A DNA stretch of 64,000 bases, from assembly GCF_036507355.1 (NCBI RefSeq), contig NZ_AP027877.1, one strand, 5' to 3'. Position 1 is the first letter of the stretch, and the number at the start of each line of letters is the position of its first letter. A program made the position numbers and the translations under genes. A model generated the notes under the pieces. The model had not been told where the DNA came from, did not search any database, and saw nothing but the letters and a program-made list of their open reading frames with translations. Shown here one piece after another: positions 46,711 through 59,116 of the stretch. The stretch comes from Escherichia coli (GTDB lineage Bacteria > Pseudomonadota > Gammaproteobacteria > Enterobacterales > Enterobacteriaceae).

Positions 46711-46786
46711 TGGCTCCTCTGACTGGACTCGAACCAGTGACATACGGATTAACAGTCCGCCGTTCTACCGACTGAACTACAGAGGA
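46711..46786 (-). tRNA. asnV: tRNA-Asn (GUU)
   Basis: Minus strand is a 76-nt tRNA with anticodon loop CTGTTAA and CCA end; identical to the copies at 57216 and 59041. Confidence 0.95.
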
Positions 46787-49081: not shown

Positions 49082-49118
49082 CAAAAAGCCCGCTATAAAA
49101 GCGGGCTTTTCAGAAATC

Positions 49119-49135
49119 TGGCTCCTCTGACTGGA
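49119..49135 (-). other. 17-bp fragment of the tRNA-Asn 3' end (island boundary repeat)
   Basis: tggctcctctgactgga matches the 3' end of tRNA-Asn; with the 5-bp flank aaatc it is a 22-bp direct repeat of 57211-57232. Confidence 0.8.
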
Positions 49136-49808: not shown

Positions 49809-50826
49809 ATGACTCTATTAGAAAAATTGTTATCAAAAGGATACTTTCCTAAAGAAGCTCTCCCTCCTTTCTCTACGGAAAAATATGCACGCGCAATTGT
49901 GAATGGATACGATAATCTTCCCCAATTATTTAGAACCGGAAAATTCATAAGTAAGTGCGCTATTCATAATATTTCCAGAAAAGGTACATTACGGAGAAAA
50001 CTTGGAATACCTAATCCCATCAACTTCTTTAGATTAAGTGAGGCAATAACTGAAAATTGGTACGATATATATGAATGCGCAAGTGAATCAACAATATCGT
50101 TGACAACTCCAGACCCTGCCAGCAATGGCGGAAGAGCATTCAACCCAAAGCATTCATTAAATGAGCTTCCAGATATTCATGCAAAACTTAGAAGTAAACA
50201 TAAATATATACTTAAAACCGATATAAGCAGATTTTACCACTCAATATACACTCATAGTATTGCATGGACTTACCATACAAAAGATATTTCAAAAAGAAAC
50301 AGAAGCAATAGTTTATTTGGCAATGTATTAGACAAGCATTCGCAAGATTCGCAAGATGGACAAACAATAGGGCTCCCCATTGGTCCAGATACATCACTTA
50401 TCATAGCAGAGTCTCTGTTATCAAATATTGATCTTAAGCTTAGCGAAAAAGGCATTAGCAATGGCTTACGTTATATAGATGATTATTTCCTAGGGTTCAA
50501 TACAATTGGGGAAGCAGAATCTGCATTAACAATAATGCAGGAACTGTTAAACGAATATGAGTTAGCATTGAACCCCTTGAAAACAGAAATCATACAATTA
50601 CCAATTGAATTCGAGCCATTAGCAATTTCAGAACTAAGGGCATTTTCATTTAGAGATACAGCTGGCGGTCAGAAATCAGATTTAATGCATTATTTCAACA
50701 TAGCTTTCAAGGCAGCAAAAGATTTACCAACGGAACCAATATTAAAATATGCAGTATCAAGGACATTTGAAGTAAATGTTACTGCTGAAAACTATCCTGT
50801 TTTTGAAAATTTTATATTACAATGTG
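49809..50826 (+). pseudogene. Reverse transcriptase, N-terminal 339 codons, interrupted by IS1
   Basis: RT motifs DISRFYHSIY, GLPIGPDTSL, YIDDYF (YxDD) and LNPLKTEI; the frame runs straight into the IS1 end at 50827. Confidence 0.8.
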
Positions 50827-50881
50827 GGTGATGCTGCCAACTTACTGATTTAGTGTATGATGGTGTTTTTGAGGTGCTCCA

Positions 50882-51157
50882 GTGGCTTCTGTTTCTATCA
50901 GCTGTCCCTCCTGTTCAGCTACTGACGGGGTGGTGCGTAACGGCAAAAGCACCGCCGGACATCAGCGCTATCTCTGCTCTCACTGTCGTAAAACATGGCA
51001 ACTGCAGTTCACTTACACCGCTTCTCAACCCGGTACGCACCAGAAAATCATTGATATGGCCATGAATGGCGTTGGATGCCGGGCAACAGCCCGCATTATG
51101 GGCGTTGGCCTCAACACGATTTTACGTCACTTAAAAAACTCAGGCCGCAGTCGGTAA
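50882..51157 (+). CDS. insA: IS1 InsA (91 aa)
   Basis: Zinc-finger N-terminus CPSC...CSHC; canonical IS1 ORF. Confidence 0.95.
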
Positions 51158-51579
51158 CCTCGCGCATACAGCCGGGCAGTGACGTCATCGTCTGCGCGGA
51201 AATGGACGAACAGTGGGGCTATGTCGGGGCTAAATCGCGCCAGCGCTGGCTGTTTTACGCGTATGACAGGCTCCGGAAGACGGTTGTTGCGCACGTATTC
51301 GGTGAACGCACGATGGCGACGCTGGGGCGTCTTATGAGCCTGCTGTCACCCTTTGACGTGGTGATATGGATGACGGATGGCTGGCCGCTGTATGAATCCC
51401 GCCTGAAGGGAAAGCTGCACGTAATCAGCAAGCGATATACGCAGCGAATTGAGCGGCATAACCTGAATCTGAGGCAGCACCTGGCACGGCTGGGACGGAA
51501 GTCGCTGTCGTTCTCAAAATCGGTGGAGCTGCATGACAAAGTCATCGGGCATTATCTGAACATAAAACACTATCAATAA
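51076..51579 (+). CDS. insB: IS1 InsB (transposase catalytic part, made as InsAB by frameshift)
   Basis: Canonical IS1 second ORF overlapping insA. Confidence 0.9.
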
Positions 51580-51602
51580 GTTGGAGTCATTACCTACAAT
51601 GT

Positions 51603-51881
51603 GTTACAGCTGACAGTAGCACATTAAAATACACCGTCAATCAGCTTATAAAATACAAAAGAATAGGTTATGTTCAGAACGTTGAGAACATTTCGCATAT
51701 TTTGAGACAATTAGCAATAACTGAAAGCTCACTTGGCCATGGACACGAAGTTGCTTATTGCCTATGGCTTTATTTGATACTACGCATCCCCATACCAGAA
51801 GTCGTCGTTAAAAATGTGGTACCAATGAGAGATCCATTTGTTGCAATTTTGTTATGCGATTGCAGGCAAAAAACCTCATGA
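51603..51881 (+). pseudogene. Reverse transcriptase C-terminal 92 codons displaced by IS1
   Basis: With one copy of the 9-bp duplication removed, the RT frame continues without stops from 51603 to TGA at 51879-51881. Confidence 0.7.
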
Positions 51882-52171
51882 CTTTTATACCTGATTTCTC
51901 AATTTATGAGCAAATGATGGTGATGGAAGAGCTATCGGGCGATATGTAGATTTTTGTCTATGAGATGCTTGCAAAAGGATGGTTTCAACCATTATCAAAC
52001 CAAAATCCAATTAGTCAAAATGAGTGTTATAGGTTCCTATTGAATTCAGGTGTTTTTTTCTATAATGAACATCTCTCATTAACTATTATGGCTGAAAGTC
52101 CAATTGATACAGATGGCTCGGCAGAGGGATTCAGTGGTTGAAATTAAAAATTATCTGTAAATAACTAACCC

Positions 52172-52210: not shown

Positions 52211-52449
52211 GATATACATATATGGGCTTTGGTGAATAAATCAGATTTGGGATAAACATCCCTGGAGACAGTTGCAGCTGTCAGGTAATACGCACGCTTT
52301 TTGCTCAGAACCCCATCAATGCGCCGCCAGCACTTTTGCAGCCAGCCCAGTCGGGTTACGCCGTCTGGACTCCCAACTTTTGATGATATCGACGCTGGTT
52401 CCTTAGGGTTATTGCGTAACGATTTATTCTGCGCCAGTCATGAAAGCCG

Positions 52450-53409
52450 TTATTCCTTCTTCCATTCGTGCGCGTAAACCTGCTTCACCCAGCGACCGCG
52501 CCCGTCGCCATGCCCCAGGTCCATCGCCACCATTGCCAGCGCCTCTTTTTCGCTGAATCCCTGCGCCAGATACCGGCGAATATCGTCCTGCGCCAGATAC
52601 CGGCGAATATCGTCCTGCGCCCAGGCGTAACGCAGCGAATGTGGGGAGTATTTGCCCGTCAGCCCCATACGCAAAGTCTGGTTGCGCCAGTATTTCATTG
52701 CCTGTTTAAGGCTTGCCGCATCAATCAGCCTGCCGTTGCGCAGTCCTGCCACCACAATGGCATTATCGAGCGCCCGTTTAACTGCGCCAGCATTCTGAAT
52801 AAGGGTATCGCGGGGCCGCCCGCCTTTGGTGCCAAACACGATGGTTAGCCGGGTGGCTCCACGTTCAAGCGACTGCCGCCACGTCAGCAATGAACGTGAA
52901 CAGCGTACCGCCTCCTGTGAACGTAACCCCATCAGCCGCGCCAGCTCCAGCGCTGCCGCCAGTCCTGCGTCTTTCAGCCGGGCAGTCTCTGCCATCTGTT
53001 GATAATATTCCGGCGTGATGGCTTTCCGTGTACCATTGCGGGATACGCCAGCCAGCCCCAGCGATTTATTCGATATCCGCTCACTCTGCGCCAGTTTTTC
53101 GCGCCCGGCCTGCGTCAGTATTTTACGGATAGCCGCCGTTTCGTTATGCAGCGTCTGTTTCTGAATACCCTGCGCCAGTCGCATCTGAATATACGCCTCA
53201 ATATGCTTCGCCTTTAAATGATGGACATAGCGTATCTGAACGTTCAGTTCCGTCAGTCGTTCGCAGAACCGTTCTGCCATGGCGATACGGTCATGGACAG
53301 TCTTGTGCGCCCCGCCAGCCTGCCGCGCCAGGTTTTTCATCTCTCTTTCCAGCATACCCATTTTGCTTTTCCTCTTATCTCGCTCCTGATTTTCACAAAA
53401 CCACAACAC
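52450..53409 (-). CDS. Tyrosine recombinase / phage-integrase-family protein with internal 9-aa tandem duplication (319 aa)
   Basis: C-terminal HSLRY...LGHGDGRGRWVKQVYAH resembles recombinase box II with catalytic Tyr; DDIRRYLAQ is duplicated through a 27-bp tandem repeat at 52561-52614. Confidence 0.6.
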   Translation of the reverse strand: MLWFCENQERDKRKSKMGMLEREMKNLARQAGGAHKTVHDRIAMAERFCERLTELNVQIRYVHHLKAKHIEAYIQMRLAQGIQKQTLHNETAAIRKILTQAGREKLAQSERISNKSLGLAGVSRNGTRKAITPEYYQQMAETARLKDAGLAAALELARLMGLRSQEAVRCSRSLLTWRQSLERGATRLTIVFGTKGGRPRDTLIQNAGAVKRALDNAIVVAGLRNGRLIDAASLKQAMKYWRNQTLRMGLTGKYSPHSLRYAWAQDDIRRYLAQDDIRRYLAQGFSEKEALAMVAMDLGHGDGRGRWVKQVYAHEWKKE

Positions 53410-54253
53410 ACAACGGATACAGCTTTCCCCGGCGCATAGGCCGATAGCCCCTGATTTTTGTCGGGGCTGCGAGCAGTACCTGAGCGCCGGGGCGACGGCT
53501 GTTGAGGTTTTGCGGGGTATCGGTTGTGCTCTCAGAGCAGCCGCCAGCGTGAGCTGGTCATCCCCCGGACCGTCCTGGTGGTCCCCCTCCGGTACTGGCT
53601 CATGTTCTCCTTTGGTGAATGAATGGTTGAAATAAATGCTGAAAAGCGACGTCAGAAGCTCGCCTGTGGCTGGAACAGTTGATATGACTGGTGCAGATGA
53701 AAATTTCTGCGGGCGTCAGTCTCTCACTCTGCGTGAGCGACTGACGCCCTGGTCTGGCGCAGGCGCTGAAAATTACACTCTGGTGCAGGATGGCGGCCAC
53801 GCGGCAGCAAATGCCTTCGGCAAATGCAGGCCGCAGCCCGTCATGTAAAGGGCGCTGGTAATCAGCAGGGTATAAGTGGGCCGGAGAAATTCCGGCAAAG
53901 AGAAACCGTGCAGCCGGTGAAGGCTGTTGCCGTTAAGCGATGACGATGAAGCCGTCCAGTGTATGTACTCTTAGCCTCAAACGCTTTCGCGTTCCGGTAT
54001 TGCGGAGGTCGTACCGGTAGCAGGGGGCTGGTCGTCCTGATAAATCAGGGGCTTCTTGCAGACCATGAAGCCAAAGGGGCTGTCAACCGACAGCTTATTG
54101 CAGGAGAGAGATTACACCGTAATTTCTGGCGCAGAAAGGGGAAACTCATTTTTCTGGAAATTGAGTTTCCCCCTGAATTTATGGAAAGTTTGTGAATGGA
54201 ACACTGCCGCGCTTCGCTTGTCGTCTCCCGGTGTGCGATTTGCTGTATCAGGA

Positions 54254-54502
54254 TCATCGCTTTCGCATGAACCTTTCCAGGCGATTACCTTTGCCGTCGA
54301 AGTATCTGGAAGGCCAGATGATCTCTGGAGCTATCTCCAGCGCATCTGCAATAAGTTTTTCTCCGCGCGGCCACGGGCGGGAAAGTGCATTTGCCAGTGT
54401 GGAAGAACTCAACCCTGCTTTACGCGATACCTCAGCCAGTGAGGTCCCTTTCTTTCTTAATCCGGCAATGATATCTGCCGGATGCCAGTCATCTTTATTC
54501 AT
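54254..54502 (-). CDS. Ner/Nlp-family DNA-binding protein (82 aa)
   Basis: DWHPADIIAGLRKKGTSLAEVSRKAGLSSSTLANALSRPWPRGE closely matches the Ner/Nlp family signature. Confidence 0.8.
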   Translation of the reverse strand: MNKDDWHPADIIAGLRKKGTSLAEVSRKAGLSSSTLANALSRPWPRGEKLIADALEIAPEIIWPSRYFDGKGNRLERFMRKR

Positions 54503-54614
54503 TGTTTTCCCCTGTTTCCAAATCTGGTTTTTCTGACTTTAGGAACTCTAAAGGCAATGAATCTTAAGGAATGCTAAAGATGGTGTCAATGTAACTATTA
54601 ACCAAACAGGTTAT

Positions 54615-54914
54615 ATGATCCCTGAACGACTCAAGGCAGCGAGGTTGCGGGCTAATCTCACCCAGGAACAACTGGGCGTTCGTGCAGGCATCGCCGAAGA
54701 TACGGCCTGCTCCCGGCTTTCTCAGTACGAAAGTGGAACACACAAGCCCACATTCAAAATGGTTTGTGCCTTTGCTCGTGTTTTGCATGTTCCTGAATGT
54801 TACTTCTATGCACAGGAAGACACTTTCGCCGAAGCGATTTTAAGGCTGTATGACGGTGAAACTGTGCAGTGGAATATAAAAACAGAGATCGTTCATCATA
54901 CTGAACGGGTATAA
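54615..54914 (+). CDS. XRE-family HTH regulator, copy 1 (99 aa)
   Basis: HTH region LTQEQLGVRAGIAEDTA...YESGTHKP; paralogue of the next gene. Confidence 0.7.
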   Translation: MIPERLKAARLRANLTQEQLGVRAGIAEDTACSRLSQYESGTHKPTFKMVCAFARVLHVPECYFYAQEDTFAEAILRLYDGETVQWNIKTEIVHHTERV

Positions 54915-55013
54915 ACCTCTTGCCTCATCCATCCTCTTTATGAACTCTAAAGAAAAATGCTCTTGAGGAATGCTAAAGATTACCGTCATAAATTCAAACT
55001 GATGGTAATTTCA

Positions 55014-55283
55014 ATGATCCCCAAACGCTTAAAAGAAGCCAGATTGCGGGCTAAACTCACTCAGGAAAAATTGGGGGTACTGGCGGGTATTGAAGAAGCC
55101 ACGGCTTATTCGCGTCTGTCACATTACGAGAGTGGTACGCATAAACCAACTTTTGATCTCGTTTGTGAGTTTGCCCGAGTACTCAATGTACCAGAATGCT
55201 ATTTCTATACGGTGGATGATGATTTCGCGCAGGCGGTGTTGGATCTTCATGCCAGGTGGACAAAGAGAACTACGGAAAGATAG
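55014..55283 (+). CDS. XRE-family HTH regulator, copy 2 (89 aa)
   Basis: MIPKRLKEARLRAKLTQEKLGV... about 60% identical to copy 1; start aligned to copy 1. Confidence 0.65.
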   Translation: MIPKRLKEARLRAKLTQEKLGVLAGIEEATAYSRLSHYESGTHKPTFDLVCEFARVLNVPECYFYTVDDDFAQAVLDLHARWTKRTTER

Positions 55284-55788: not shown

Positions 55789-57066
55789 TTACGACGCCTG
55801 TTTCAGGCGGCGGGCATACTGGTAAGCTGAAACATACCCGTCACTGTTTGCATCAAGATAATCTGACCACCATTGCATCATCTCGATCCGCTCTTCCAGA
55901 TATTCAGCCTTGTGAATATACGCAGCGCGGACGCTGTTTCTTTCCTGGTGACTCATTTGTTTTTCAATCGCTTCTTTGCTCCACAGCCCCGATTCACTCA
56001 ACGCACTACATGCCATCGCCCGGAAGCCATGCCCGCAGACGTCTTTTTTGGTGTCATAGCCCATCACCCGCAGCGCTTTATTCACGGTGTTGTCGCTCAT
56101 GCACTTATCCTGGTCGTACTCGCCGGGAAAGATAAAGGCCAGATGACCGGAGAGGGCTTCGATCTGTTTCAGGATCGCAATTGCCTGATCCGACAGCGGC
56201 ACGATATGTTGAATTTTCATTTTCGACCCCCGGTAAGAGAAGCGCACATTTTCGATCTGCTCGCGTTCTTCCGCGATCACCCACAGCTTTTGCTGCCAGT
56301 CGATTTCACTCCAGCGAGCAAAGCGTAGCTCGCTGGAGCGCACAAAAAATATCAGTGACAACTTAAGGGCGTATTTCGTCAGCAGCCTGCCGCAGTAGTT
56401 ATCCGTACGGGTTAAAAGCTCTGGCAGCCTGTCCAGCGACAGGGCCGGGTAATGATTAGTCTCTGGCGCAGCAAATTCACCATCCAGATACAGCGCGGGG
56501 TTCGCTTTGAGCAACTGCTTTTTCATCGCGTAGTGCATGATGTCGGTGACATAGTTTTTCAGCCGGGCGGTGATCTCCAGAAAGCCTTTGCTCTCCACCT
56601 TACGCAGCGTGACCAGCAAATCCTCTGTTTCGATCTCCCCGATAAGGCGATCCCCGATATCCGGGAAAACATACATTTCCAGTCTGCGCATAACCGTTTT
56701 CGCGTAATGTTCAGACCAGCGTTTATGCTCGCCATGCCAGTTAGTGGCGACCTGGCTGAACGTCTGTCCGTTTTTCTTCTTCTGTTTCTCCGTCTGCTTC
56801 ACCGCAGCAGGATCGACGCCTGCATGAATGTTATTGCGTGCCGCTTCCCGTAAACGGCGAGCCTGCAACAGCGAGATCCCCGGGTAGGGGCCAAAGGCCA
56901 GCTTTTTCTCTTTCCCGTCGATACGGTACTTCATGTACCAGAGTTTTGAGCCATTAGGTTTGATCAACAGGTACAGTCCGGAACTGTCTGTCATTTTGAA
57001 AGGTTTGTCGGAGGGTTTGATCTTGCGAATCGTGGTATCTGTTAATGCCATAGCGGGGGGCTCCAT
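55789..57066 (-). CDS. P4-family tyrosine integrase (425 aa)
   Basis: N-terminal arm-binding domain (LTDTTIRKIKPSDKPFKMTDSSGLYLLIKPNGSKLWYMKYR) plus C-terminal catalytic domain; adjacent to the tRNA-Asn 3' end. Confidence 0.9.
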   Translation of the reverse strand: MEPPAMALTDTTIRKIKPSDKPFKMTDSSGLYLLIKPNGSKLWYMKYRIDGKEKKLAFGPYPGISLLQARRLREAARNNIHAGVDPAAVKQTEKQKKKNGQTFSQVATNWHGEHKRWSEHYAKTVMRRLEMYVFPDIGDRLIGEIETEDLLVTLRKVESKGFLEITARLKNYVTDIMHYAMKKQLLKANPALYLDGEFAAPETNHYPALSLDRLPELLTRTDNYCGRLLTKYALKLSLIFFVRSSELRFARWSEIDWQQKLWVIAEEREQIENVRFSYRGSKMKIQHIVPLSDQAIAILKQIEALSGHLAFIFPGEYDQDKCMSDNTVNKALRVMGYDTKKDVCGHGFRAMACSALSESGLWSKEAIEKQMSHQERNSVRAAYIHKAEYLEERIEMMQWWSDYLDANSDGYVSAYQYARRLKQAS

Positions 57067-57215
57067 TTGCTCACCGAACCGTGAGGCCCCCGATTAAGCC
57101 CACAAAAACTATGGATGTCAAGAAACCCGGTAGCCTCTTGTGAGACAACCGGGTAAAGATAAGTTCTTGTTTTTTAACTATCTCGAGACTCATAGAGATG
57201 TCTCAAAACTAAAAT

Positions 57216-57291
57216 CTGGCTCCTCTGACTGGACTCGAACCAGTGACATACGGATTAACAGTCCGCCGTTCTACCGACTGAACTACAGAGG
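57216..57291 (-). tRNA. asnU: tRNA-Asn (GUU), island integration target
   Basis: 76-nt minus-strand tRNA identical to the other copies. Confidence 0.95.
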
Positions 57292-57452
57292 AATCGCTGT
57301 TGAGGCACATCTTAACGGCGAAAAATCTTTTGTCAAACCCGATTTTTAAATTCCCCAACTGTTTGCCGTTTCTATCAACAGTTTGTTGCATTTGCAGACA
57401 ATTTGTTGGCGAAAATCTTTGCAGCTTTGCTGATTCTCCCTCATTATTTGAA

Positions 57453-59040: not shown

Positions 59041-59116
59041 TCCTCTGTAGTTCAGTCGGTAGAACGGCGGACTGTTAATCCGTATGTCACTGGTTCGAGT
59101 CCAGTCAGAGGAGCCA
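59041..59116 (+). tRNA. asnW: tRNA-Asn (GUU)
   Basis: tcctctgtagttcagtcggtagaacggcggactgttaatccgtatgtcactggttcgagtccagtcagaggagcca. Confidence 0.95.

Follow-up and report, generated by a model that had tools for sequence, protein, structure and literature searches.

We analysed a 64,000 bp stretch of Escherichia coli DNA (RefSeq assembly GCF_036507355.1, contig NZ_AP027877.1; hereafter the window) and focused on a minus-strand gene at 52450-53361, which encodes a protein with the tyrosine-recombinase fold and lies in an island at a tRNA-Asn gene. This gene contains a perfect in-frame 27-bp tandem duplication close to the codons of its catalytic residues. We consider it probable that the duplication is an unstable repeat, born by slippage in a relaxase-type gene related to mpsA of the genomic island SGI1, and that it is most likely a neutral or mildly damaging variant of a decaying island. 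The gene, its catalytic codons and the repeat are located as follows.

52450-53361, minus strand: coding sequence of the 303-aa tyrosine-recombinase-fold protein, an MpsA-like putative MOB_M relaxase (list of open reading frames (ORFs), RefSeq and Pfam)
52474-52512, minus strand: codons from H284 (of LGH) to the nucleophile Y296, including the family-specific GHGDGRGR (sequence and homologue alignment)
52561-52587, minus strand: repeat unit copy A, 27 bp, DDIRRYLAQ, residues 259-267
52588-52614, minus strand: repeat unit copy B, 27 bp, DDIRRYLAQ, residues 250-258
52614-52621: 8-bp microhomology CCTGCGCC, third of its occurrences (alignment of the DNA with the A30 and A34 single-copy alleles)
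52630-52641, minus strand: codons of the catalytic H241-S-L-R244 (HxxR), at the N-terminus of the duplication-bearing helix (sequence reading)

The 27-bp tandem repeat

Tandem Repeats Finder reported a single array at 52560-52621 (period 27, 2.3 copies, 100% matches, zero indels), the only perfect one among the three arrays scoring at least 50 in the window. On direct reading, ctgcgccagataccggcgaatatcgtc occupies 52561-52587 and again 52588-52614, and ctgcgcc follows at 52615-52621; a partial third unit of 7-8 bp trails the two perfect ones, as the original prediction had described. By simple arithmetic, a perfect 27-bp tandem copy would be expected by chance in 64 kb with a probability of approximately 64000 x 4^-27, or 4e-12. 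The minus-strand ORF translation across the repeat is ...PHSLRYAWAQDDIRRYLAQDDIRRYLAQGFSEKEALAMVAMDLGHGDGRGRWVKQVY..., and its reading around the repeat is ...PHSLRYAWAQ-DDIRRYLAQ-DDIRRYLAQ-GFSEKEALAMVAMDLGHGDGRGRWVKQVY.... DDIRRYLAQ is doubled in frame between the HxxR and LGH...Y motifs of the 303-aa protein; the ORF translation agrees here with the duplication first described between HSLRY and LGH...Y.

In the single-copy alleles of strains A30 and A34, DNA alignment showed that CCTGCGCC brackets the 27-bp unit at either end, a classical substrate of slipped-strand tandem duplication. The other two occurrences of this 8-bp sequence in the window are at 52560-52567 and 52587-52594. Its position at the unit boundaries is consistent with the slippage origin suggested earlier, and we propose that the duplication arose by slipped-strand mispairing between two such microhomologies. 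Bacterial microhomology-mediated tandem duplications and in-frame coding variable-number tandem repeats share two traits with it: a short direct repeat at the boundaries of a perfect head-to-tail copy, and a copy number that later varies among close relatives. Unlike those coding repeats, the present one has only 1-3 copies in a single lineage. Elsewhere in the window, a 96-bp tandem repeat of REP/BIME-like sequence (1.9 copies, 90% identity) was present at 2712-2899.

Derived state of the duplication

The chromosome of E. coli G4/9 (NZ_CP060073.1), which lacks the IS1 copy of the window, matched the window at 99.94% identity. The complete genome of G4/9 carried the identical duplication, and the exact 303-aa protein was found in 158 contigs (173 index blocks), in the same island every time. 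An independent complete genome and more than 150 assemblies contain the tract, which excludes an assembly artefact; moreover, the 54-bp tract is shorter than one sequencing read.

Among the 171 complete E. coli genomes carrying the gene, 170 had a single copy of the unit and the duplication was present in G4/9 only. Among the 129 other genomes with at least 80% query cover, the full-length matches listed measured 324 bp for a query of 351 bp, 27 bp fewer. The best 120 database homologues were 289-301 aa long, compared with 303 aa here, and alignment of 18 of the best showed a clean 9-residue gap opposite the duplication. No insertion was detected at this site in any of 117 aligned homologues (117/117, down to 32% identity), and the distance from HxxR to LGH was constant among them to within 1-3 residues. 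To judge from these alignments, the 27-bp duplication is the derived state. The comparison of homologues for a single 9-aa unit, which had been proposed as a check, thus found single units throughout, so that the duplication is peculiar to this lineage and not a native feature of the family. Taken together, the tract in G4/9 and more than 150 assemblies and the homologues without insertion refute the idea that the duplication is a sequencing or assembly artefact or a native family feature; no observation in its favour was found, and we give it practically no chance.

Copy number among close relatives

A de-duplicated protein and a hypothetical 3-copy protein were each looked up by exact sequence. 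The 1-copy form (P0125) was found in 29 contigs (58 blocks), and the 3-copy form (P0285) in one contig of 656 kb. The proteins of the 1-, 2- and 3-copy alleles were otherwise identical, and the alleles shared a common island and a common chromosomal site. Copy-number polymorphism among close relatives, as is looked for in a contingency locus, was present in the form of these three alleles.

To compare haplotypes, 17 kb were aligned around ten loci carrying the alleles. Two 1-copy loci (L017 and L019) formed the outgroup. The window, with two copies, and the 1-copy locus L018 had the derived island single-nucleotide polymorphisms (SNPs) 57102, 51948 and 49201 in common. The remaining haplotype, with a derived T at 53733, comprised loci with one copy (L016, L020), two copies (L014, L015, G4/9) and three copies (L021). 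Copy number was therefore homoplastic and did not track the flanking SNP haplotypes, implying that the tract expands and contracts. From this alignment it appears that the repeat changed its copy number several times, or that short conversion tracts moved copies between islands. The original prediction of a recent slippage event was apt insofar as slippage fits the microhomology; the idea of a single event gave way to a homoplastic 1/2/3-copy polymorphism. After its origin, the tract would have behaved as a small unstable repeat of one to three copies in one E. coli island lineage.

Predicted effect on the catalytic helix

The AlphaFold model of the 1-copy protein (pLDDT 96.3) contained a continuous helix at 241-257 (pLDDT approximately 97), whose N-terminal end carries H241 and R244. 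This region of the 2-copy model (pLDDT 93.8) was split into a helix at 240-245, a loop at 246-255 and a helix at 256-266. The pLDDT of the loop was below 70, and below 50 at 248-251, while the remainder of the model was unchanged. The DDIRRYLAQ insert lies within the alpha-helix that bears the catalytic His241 and Arg244. From the second catalytic Arg to the His of LGH, the spacer is otherwise constant at 30 residues, and the duplication lengthens it by 9. This spacer measures approximately 22 residues in XerD, Cre and lambda Int, as opposed to 30 in the present family. An insertion within a helix beside two catalytic residues, in a spacer of invariant length, suggests on these models that the duplication damages the protein. 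By analogy with MpsA, however, it may be tolerated, because the distance from R250 to H310 in MpsA is 60 residues, compared with 31 here; the C-terminal end of the same helix is where MpsA has these approximately 29 additional residues.

Kinship of the gene product with MpsA

Translation starts at the ATG at 53361 (MGMLEREMK..., 303 aa), as in RefSeq and all homologues; the GTG at 53409 chosen in the original prediction (319 aa) is 48 nt too far upstream. The protein is identical to RefSeq WP_021570843.1 of strain G4/9. It matched PF12834 (N-terminal SAM-like, Phage_int_SAM_2; 117.2 bits) and PF12835 (Integrase_1; 195.5 bits), both above their Pfam gathering scores, whereas PF00589 was below its gathering score (15.3 versus 27.1 bits), with a tie seen at the superfamily level only. 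Across 117-118 homologues, the catalytic set R147, K179, H241, R244, H284 and Y296 (303-aa numbering) was invariant or conserved to more than 90%, R244 being invariant and H241 nearly so. In a Foldseek search, the AlphaFold model matched lambda Int, XerH, Cre and Tn1549 Int with a probability of 1.0, and the TM scores to the first three were 0.5-0.58. The designation as a tyrosine recombinase was thus right for fold and chemistry: HxxR and LGH...Y belong to the conserved catalytic motifs, and the full set of catalytic residues was kept on alignment. With the single protein sequence, a search of PDB returned nothing at E<=1, NCBIfam gave XerC/XerD matches only, all of them sub-threshold, and PHROGs gave nothing beyond a weak match to a generic integrase family. 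PADLOC matched no defence model to this protein or to the Ner-like protein and P4-type integrase encoded in the same island.

SGI1 mpsA was recovered via a published primer arm from one Salmonella record in the plasmid collection; the arm matched none of the complete E. coli genomes. SGI1 MpsA matched PF12835 at 43.5 bits (cut-off 23), and hhalign aligned the family with MpsA over 241 columns spanning both domains (probability 98.7%, E 2e-16). The hidden Markov model (HMM) of the family scored MpsA at 70.8 bits, two Xer-like plasmid recombinases at 17-18 bits and P4-type integrases below 0; among PDB recombinases, its best score was 19.5 bits, with weak Xer matches. Homology to MpsA, an experimentally supported MOB_M member, therefore exceeded homology to classical recombinases (70.8 versus at most 19.5 bits). 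By this profile evidence, the PF12834/PF12835 family is a specific relative of MpsA.

MpsA is an atypical tyrosine-recombinase-like relaxase, and is grouped with MobK of pIGRK and TcpM of pCW3 in the class MOB_M. Tyr-dependent nicking and a requirement for conjugative transfer were demonstrated for MobK (PMC8152469) and, by genetics, for MpsA (PMC6414798). PF12835 serves as the signature of the SGI1 MpsA relaxase in genomic-island classification (PMC10484663). MOB_M relaxases are reported to be abundant and enterobacterial-chromosomal, to adjoin integrases and often to be mis-annotated as integrases; 96% are close to a separate integrase in an integrative element, and membership in the CONJscan MOB_M profile requires at least 84 bits (bioRxiv 10.64898/2026.01.13.699239).

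MpsA and the present protein have the motifs GLRxxE, GTKGGRxR, HxxR(H/Y) and LGHG...Y in common, and each is encoded in an integrative island with a separate integrase. SGI1, however, is inserted at trmE, whereas the present island is inserted at tRNA-Asn via a P4-type integrase, and MpsA needs a separate core-binding-like protein, MpsB, encoded downstream, for which the present locus has no gene; according to Pfam, an N-terminal SAM-like domain is fused to the recombinase-like protein. The classical tyrosine recombinases (XerC/XerD, lambda Int, Cre and XerH) have the two-domain fold and all six catalytic residues in common with it. In contrast to them, GHGDGRGR before the Tyr is specific to the present family, and the present gene does not adjoin an att site.

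The family was found in 50 of 72,556 plasmid records and was practically absent from phage records. Its near-absence from phages and rarity on plasmids contradict the label of a prophage integrase. On two small Burkholderiaceae plasmids (8 and 15 kb, both typed non-mobilizable), a small overlapping ORF follows the PF12835 gene (L004, 200-1298; L005, 4489-5614). The metagenomic contigs of the distant homologues P0137 and P0142 were too short to reveal a gene context.

The tRNA-Asn island and the decay of its cargo

The gene lies in an island of approximately 8 kb bounded by identical and intact 22-bp att repeats, whose main features are listed below.

49114-49135: second att repeat, identical 22 bp, at the other island end
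49809-52141, plus strand: Drt4/Drt6-like defence reverse transcriptase (RT) pseudogene, convergent with the recombinase-like gene, interrupted by IS1 and by a 1-bp frameshift near 51874
52316-52402, minus strand: remnant of a NadS-family gene, directly downstream of the recombinase-like gene (mapped from the G4/9 RefSeq annotation)
54254-54502, minus strand: Ner-like HTH_35 gene, the upstream partner of the EFASI RNA motif and the recombinase-like gene, 73% identical to its Klebsiella counterpart
55789-57051, minus strand: P4-type tyrosine integrase of 420 aa (Arm-DNA-bind_3, Phage_int_M and Phage_integrase), adjoining tRNA-Asn
57212-57233: att repeat AAATCTGGCTCCTCTGACTGGA, overlapping the 3' end of tRNA-Asn (57217-57292)

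The P4-type integrase is likely to be the true integrase of the island, and the recombinase-like gene is probably not its integrase. The convergent orientation of the latter and the RT cassette, noted at the outset, is borne out by the ORF list and the RefSeq annotation. An intact RT would have 518 aa. Four independent lesions of this gene were found across the sampled island lineage. A 1-bp deletion near 51874, present in the window as in most other strains, splits the RT into 431 and 87 aa. L017 and L019 carry the lesion Y85* instead (window position 50063), and L020 has an additional 1-bp deletion at 50500. In the window, an IS1 element (InsA/InsB ORFs, 50827-51594) flanked by a 9-bp target duplication is also inserted in the RT gene, and is absent from G4/9. 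As a result, the RT was inactivated in every sampled strain of the lineage. The four RT lesions and the NadS remnant indicate relaxed selection on the island, under which a neutral or mildly deleterious repeat polymorphism is the simplest reading.

Several further features of the island and its surroundings were recorded. Two tandem paralogous Xre-type HTH genes lie at 54615-54914 and 54957-55283 on the plus strand; the start of the second is annotated differently between assemblies (89 or 108 aa). Between these genes and the P4-type integrase, the segment 55296-55371 (minus strand) gave sub-threshold Rfam matches to OrzO-P (47.8 versus 60 bits) and ohsC, both type I antitoxin small RNA families. 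Three tRNA-Asn genes occur within 13 kb (46711-46786, 57217-57292 and 59041-59116), and the island uses the middle one. Strain A30 has a related island at a neighbouring tRNA-Asn site, with different cargo, namely a 1210-aa hypothetical protein and a RelE/ParE toxin-antitoxin pair. At the end of the window, 63570-64000 matches an IS3-family element of G4/9 inverted relative to the collinear flank, which suggests a structural difference from G4/9 at this position.

The upstream region and the EFASI motif

Approximately 890 bp of conserved non-coding DNA separate the Ner-like gene from the recombinase-like gene. The Ner-like gene, this region and the recombinase-like gene form a module that recurs in Klebsiella and in other E. 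coli islands whose cargo differs. Two elements were located in the region.

53470-53603, minus strand: EFASI RNA motif (Rfam RF02957), full length, 112.4 bits versus a gathering score of 51.2
53711-53749: hairpin with 17-bp arms and a 5-nt loop, non-coding, upstream of EFASI, kept in Klebsiella

EFASI is encoded on the strand of the gene, and 108 nt separate it from the start codon downstream. Seven Enterobacterales loci were examined, and in each a copy on the strand of the gene precedes it by 93-118 nt: the window and six others (L002 9037-9170, L003 9044-9177, L008 8719-8868, L009 8732-8881, and L010 and L012 9778-9908). The arrangement extends to plasmid proteins that are merely about 46% identical. 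The Klebsiella counterpart retains the hairpin with changes on both arms, and the lineage SNP at 53733 is at the base of its loop. The upstream inverted repeats I3, I5 and I9 partly overlap the 3' half of EFASI and are not nested. A promoter and terminator scan of 52300-54600 performed no better than shuffled sequences. On the minus strand at 53536-53605, a Shine-Dalgarno-like AAGGAG followed by ATG occurs at the 5' edge of EFASI and is conserved in E. coli and Klebsiella; it opens a 23-codon ORF in E. coli, the length of which is not conserved in Klebsiella. A 158-aa Klebsiella ORF between the Ner-like and recombinase-like genes was rejected as spurious, since it has in-frame stops in E. coli.

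EFASI was named after the STAXI motifs and integrase genes with which it is associated (Rfam text quoted in PMC12370729), and the present gene exemplifies the "integrase" behind the name (EFASI and STAXI, Rfam RF02957 and RF01728). The Rfam scan found no STAXI in the island of the window. STAXI flanks the PF12835 gene on a Citrobacter plasmid (L008, 8100-8277 and 18641-18786) and on a Pantoea plasmid (L009, 8154-8302 and 9943-10093). These Citrobacter and Pantoea plasmids carry SPI-7-type (MPF_G) transfer genes, ssb, topoisomerase III and antirestriction-like genes.

SGI1 encodes an essential small RNA (sgm-sRNA) between oriT and mpsA (PMC9299015). EFASI, likewise a structured RNA element, has the analogous position here, between an upstream non-coding region and the gene. 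The Rfam EFASI model found nothing upstream of mpsA in SGI1, and homology between EFASI and sgm-sRNA is unsupported, since the model does not match SGI1. By analogy, EFASI with the PF12834/PF12835 protein might be a widespread enterobacterial counterpart of the SGI1 module of sgm-sRNA and MpsA, with the 27-bp repeat acting as a reversible in-frame dial; we regard this as improbable. If it were true, the orphan EFASI motif, and perhaps STAXI, would gain a function in conjugative DNA processing.

Discussion

We give a relaxase function of the protein a roughly even to slightly better chance, with a true recombinase role as the main rival. As a relaxase-like protein of the MOB_M type, it would use Tyr296 to nick the conserved upstream region at a cis site, and the tRNA-Asn island of approximately 8 kb could thereby hitch a ride on a helper conjugation system. 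The two examined plasmids with a family member, from Citrobacter and Pantoea, carry conjugation (mating-pair formation) genes without a relaxase recognised by MOB-suite and are typed "non-mobilizable", which fits a hidden relaxase. The recombination role implied in the original prediction calls for revision: the protein is probably not the island integrase, and its family is specifically related to MpsA. That it nevertheless performs true site-specific recombination on duplex DNA or on folded single strands, whether as a second integrase, a resolvase or an invertase, and that the duplication perturbs this reaction and not mobilisation, is unlikely, though it retains an appreciable chance. The full R-K-H-R-H-Y active site with a fused core-binding-like N-terminal domain is that of complete recombinases, both Pfam and RefSeq label it an integrase, an MPF_G plasmid encodes a TraI_2/UvrD pair alongside a member of the family, and the nearby structured EFASI and STAXI motifs are possible folded DNA substrates; the single-stranded DNA idea was raised for STAXI by Weinberg 2010 (PMC2864571). 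However, the island already has the P4-type integrase beside its att site, the small Burkholderiaceae plasmids with a family member also have a separate Xer-like recombinase, and the family profile is far closer to MpsA than to any classical recombinase. Furthermore, paired recombination sites were not seen around the gene, and the family is essentially absent from phages.

The consequence of the repeat is a separate question from the activity of the protein. It is plausible, although we lean against it, that the duplication is a knockout and the gene a pseudogene despite its open reading frame: 117 homologues keep the length of the spacer from R244 to the LGH histidine constant (within 1-3 residues), AlphaFold fails to keep the catalytic helix continuous, with confidence below 50 at residues 248-251, and the adjacent cargo gene is dead. 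On the other hand, the nine added residues may just as well be placed after the helix, at its C-terminal end, exactly where MpsA has its approximately 29 extra residues; the rest of the 2-copy model is unchanged and confident, and zero further lesions were found in the gene across more than 150 assemblies. At the opposite extreme, the repeat would be an adaptive, reversible switch of the contingency type that tunes or silences the protein, for example by immobilising the island or cutting the cost of nicking. One, two and three copies between near-identical islands in a homoplastic pattern, copy-number changes that are all in frame, and the location of the tract in the catalytic helix would suit such a switch. 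Nevertheless, we regard it as very unlikely: the copy range is just 1-3, repeats at this site occur in no other lineage or homologue, and the rest of the island is decaying (an RT broken four independent ways, a NadS remnant and IS1), as expected under relaxed selection. Perfect tandem duplications are, in addition, intrinsically unstable even without selection, through RecA-independent slippage. The repeat polymorphism is most likely neutral or mildly damaging under relaxed selection in a decaying island, not an adaptation.

Several observations weigh against parts of the account favoured here, namely a slippage-born, neutral or mildly damaging repeat in an MpsA-like relaxase-type gene. Identity with MpsA is just about 26%, and no MpsB-like partner gene was found at the locus, where only the NadS remnant lies downstream. 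No oriT was identified at the locus, the conserved non-coding DNA upstream holding EFASI and the hairpin, and the literature found contains no relaxase-activity test of any member of the PF12834/PF12835 subfamily. The Pantoea MPF_G plasmid with a family member also encodes a TraI_2 (MOB_H-like) protein and a UvrD helicase, and SGI-4 was originally assigned a TraI relaxase (PMC6543542); the family could thus have another role in such elements. The homoplasy rests on 3-5 SNPs, and a short gene-conversion tract could mimic it. The 2-copy form was commoner than the 1-copy form in the sampled lineage, a frequency that is compatible with neutrality without demonstrating it. Finally, AlphaFold guided by the family alignment does not extend to stability and activity.

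The duplication by itself is an everyday type of mutation and of little weight; the re-labelling of its host gene is more useful. On the profile comparisons above, the PF12835 genes that bear the label "integrase domain-containing protein" or "prophage integrase" in small islands of E. coli, Klebsiella and Salmonella are relatives of MpsA, and the EFASI motif precedes them consistently. The natural 1-, 2- and 3-copy alleles could provide ready-made probes of how much active-site spacing the protein tolerates. If these proteins are relaxases, many small defence or cargo islands deemed immobile would be mobilisable.

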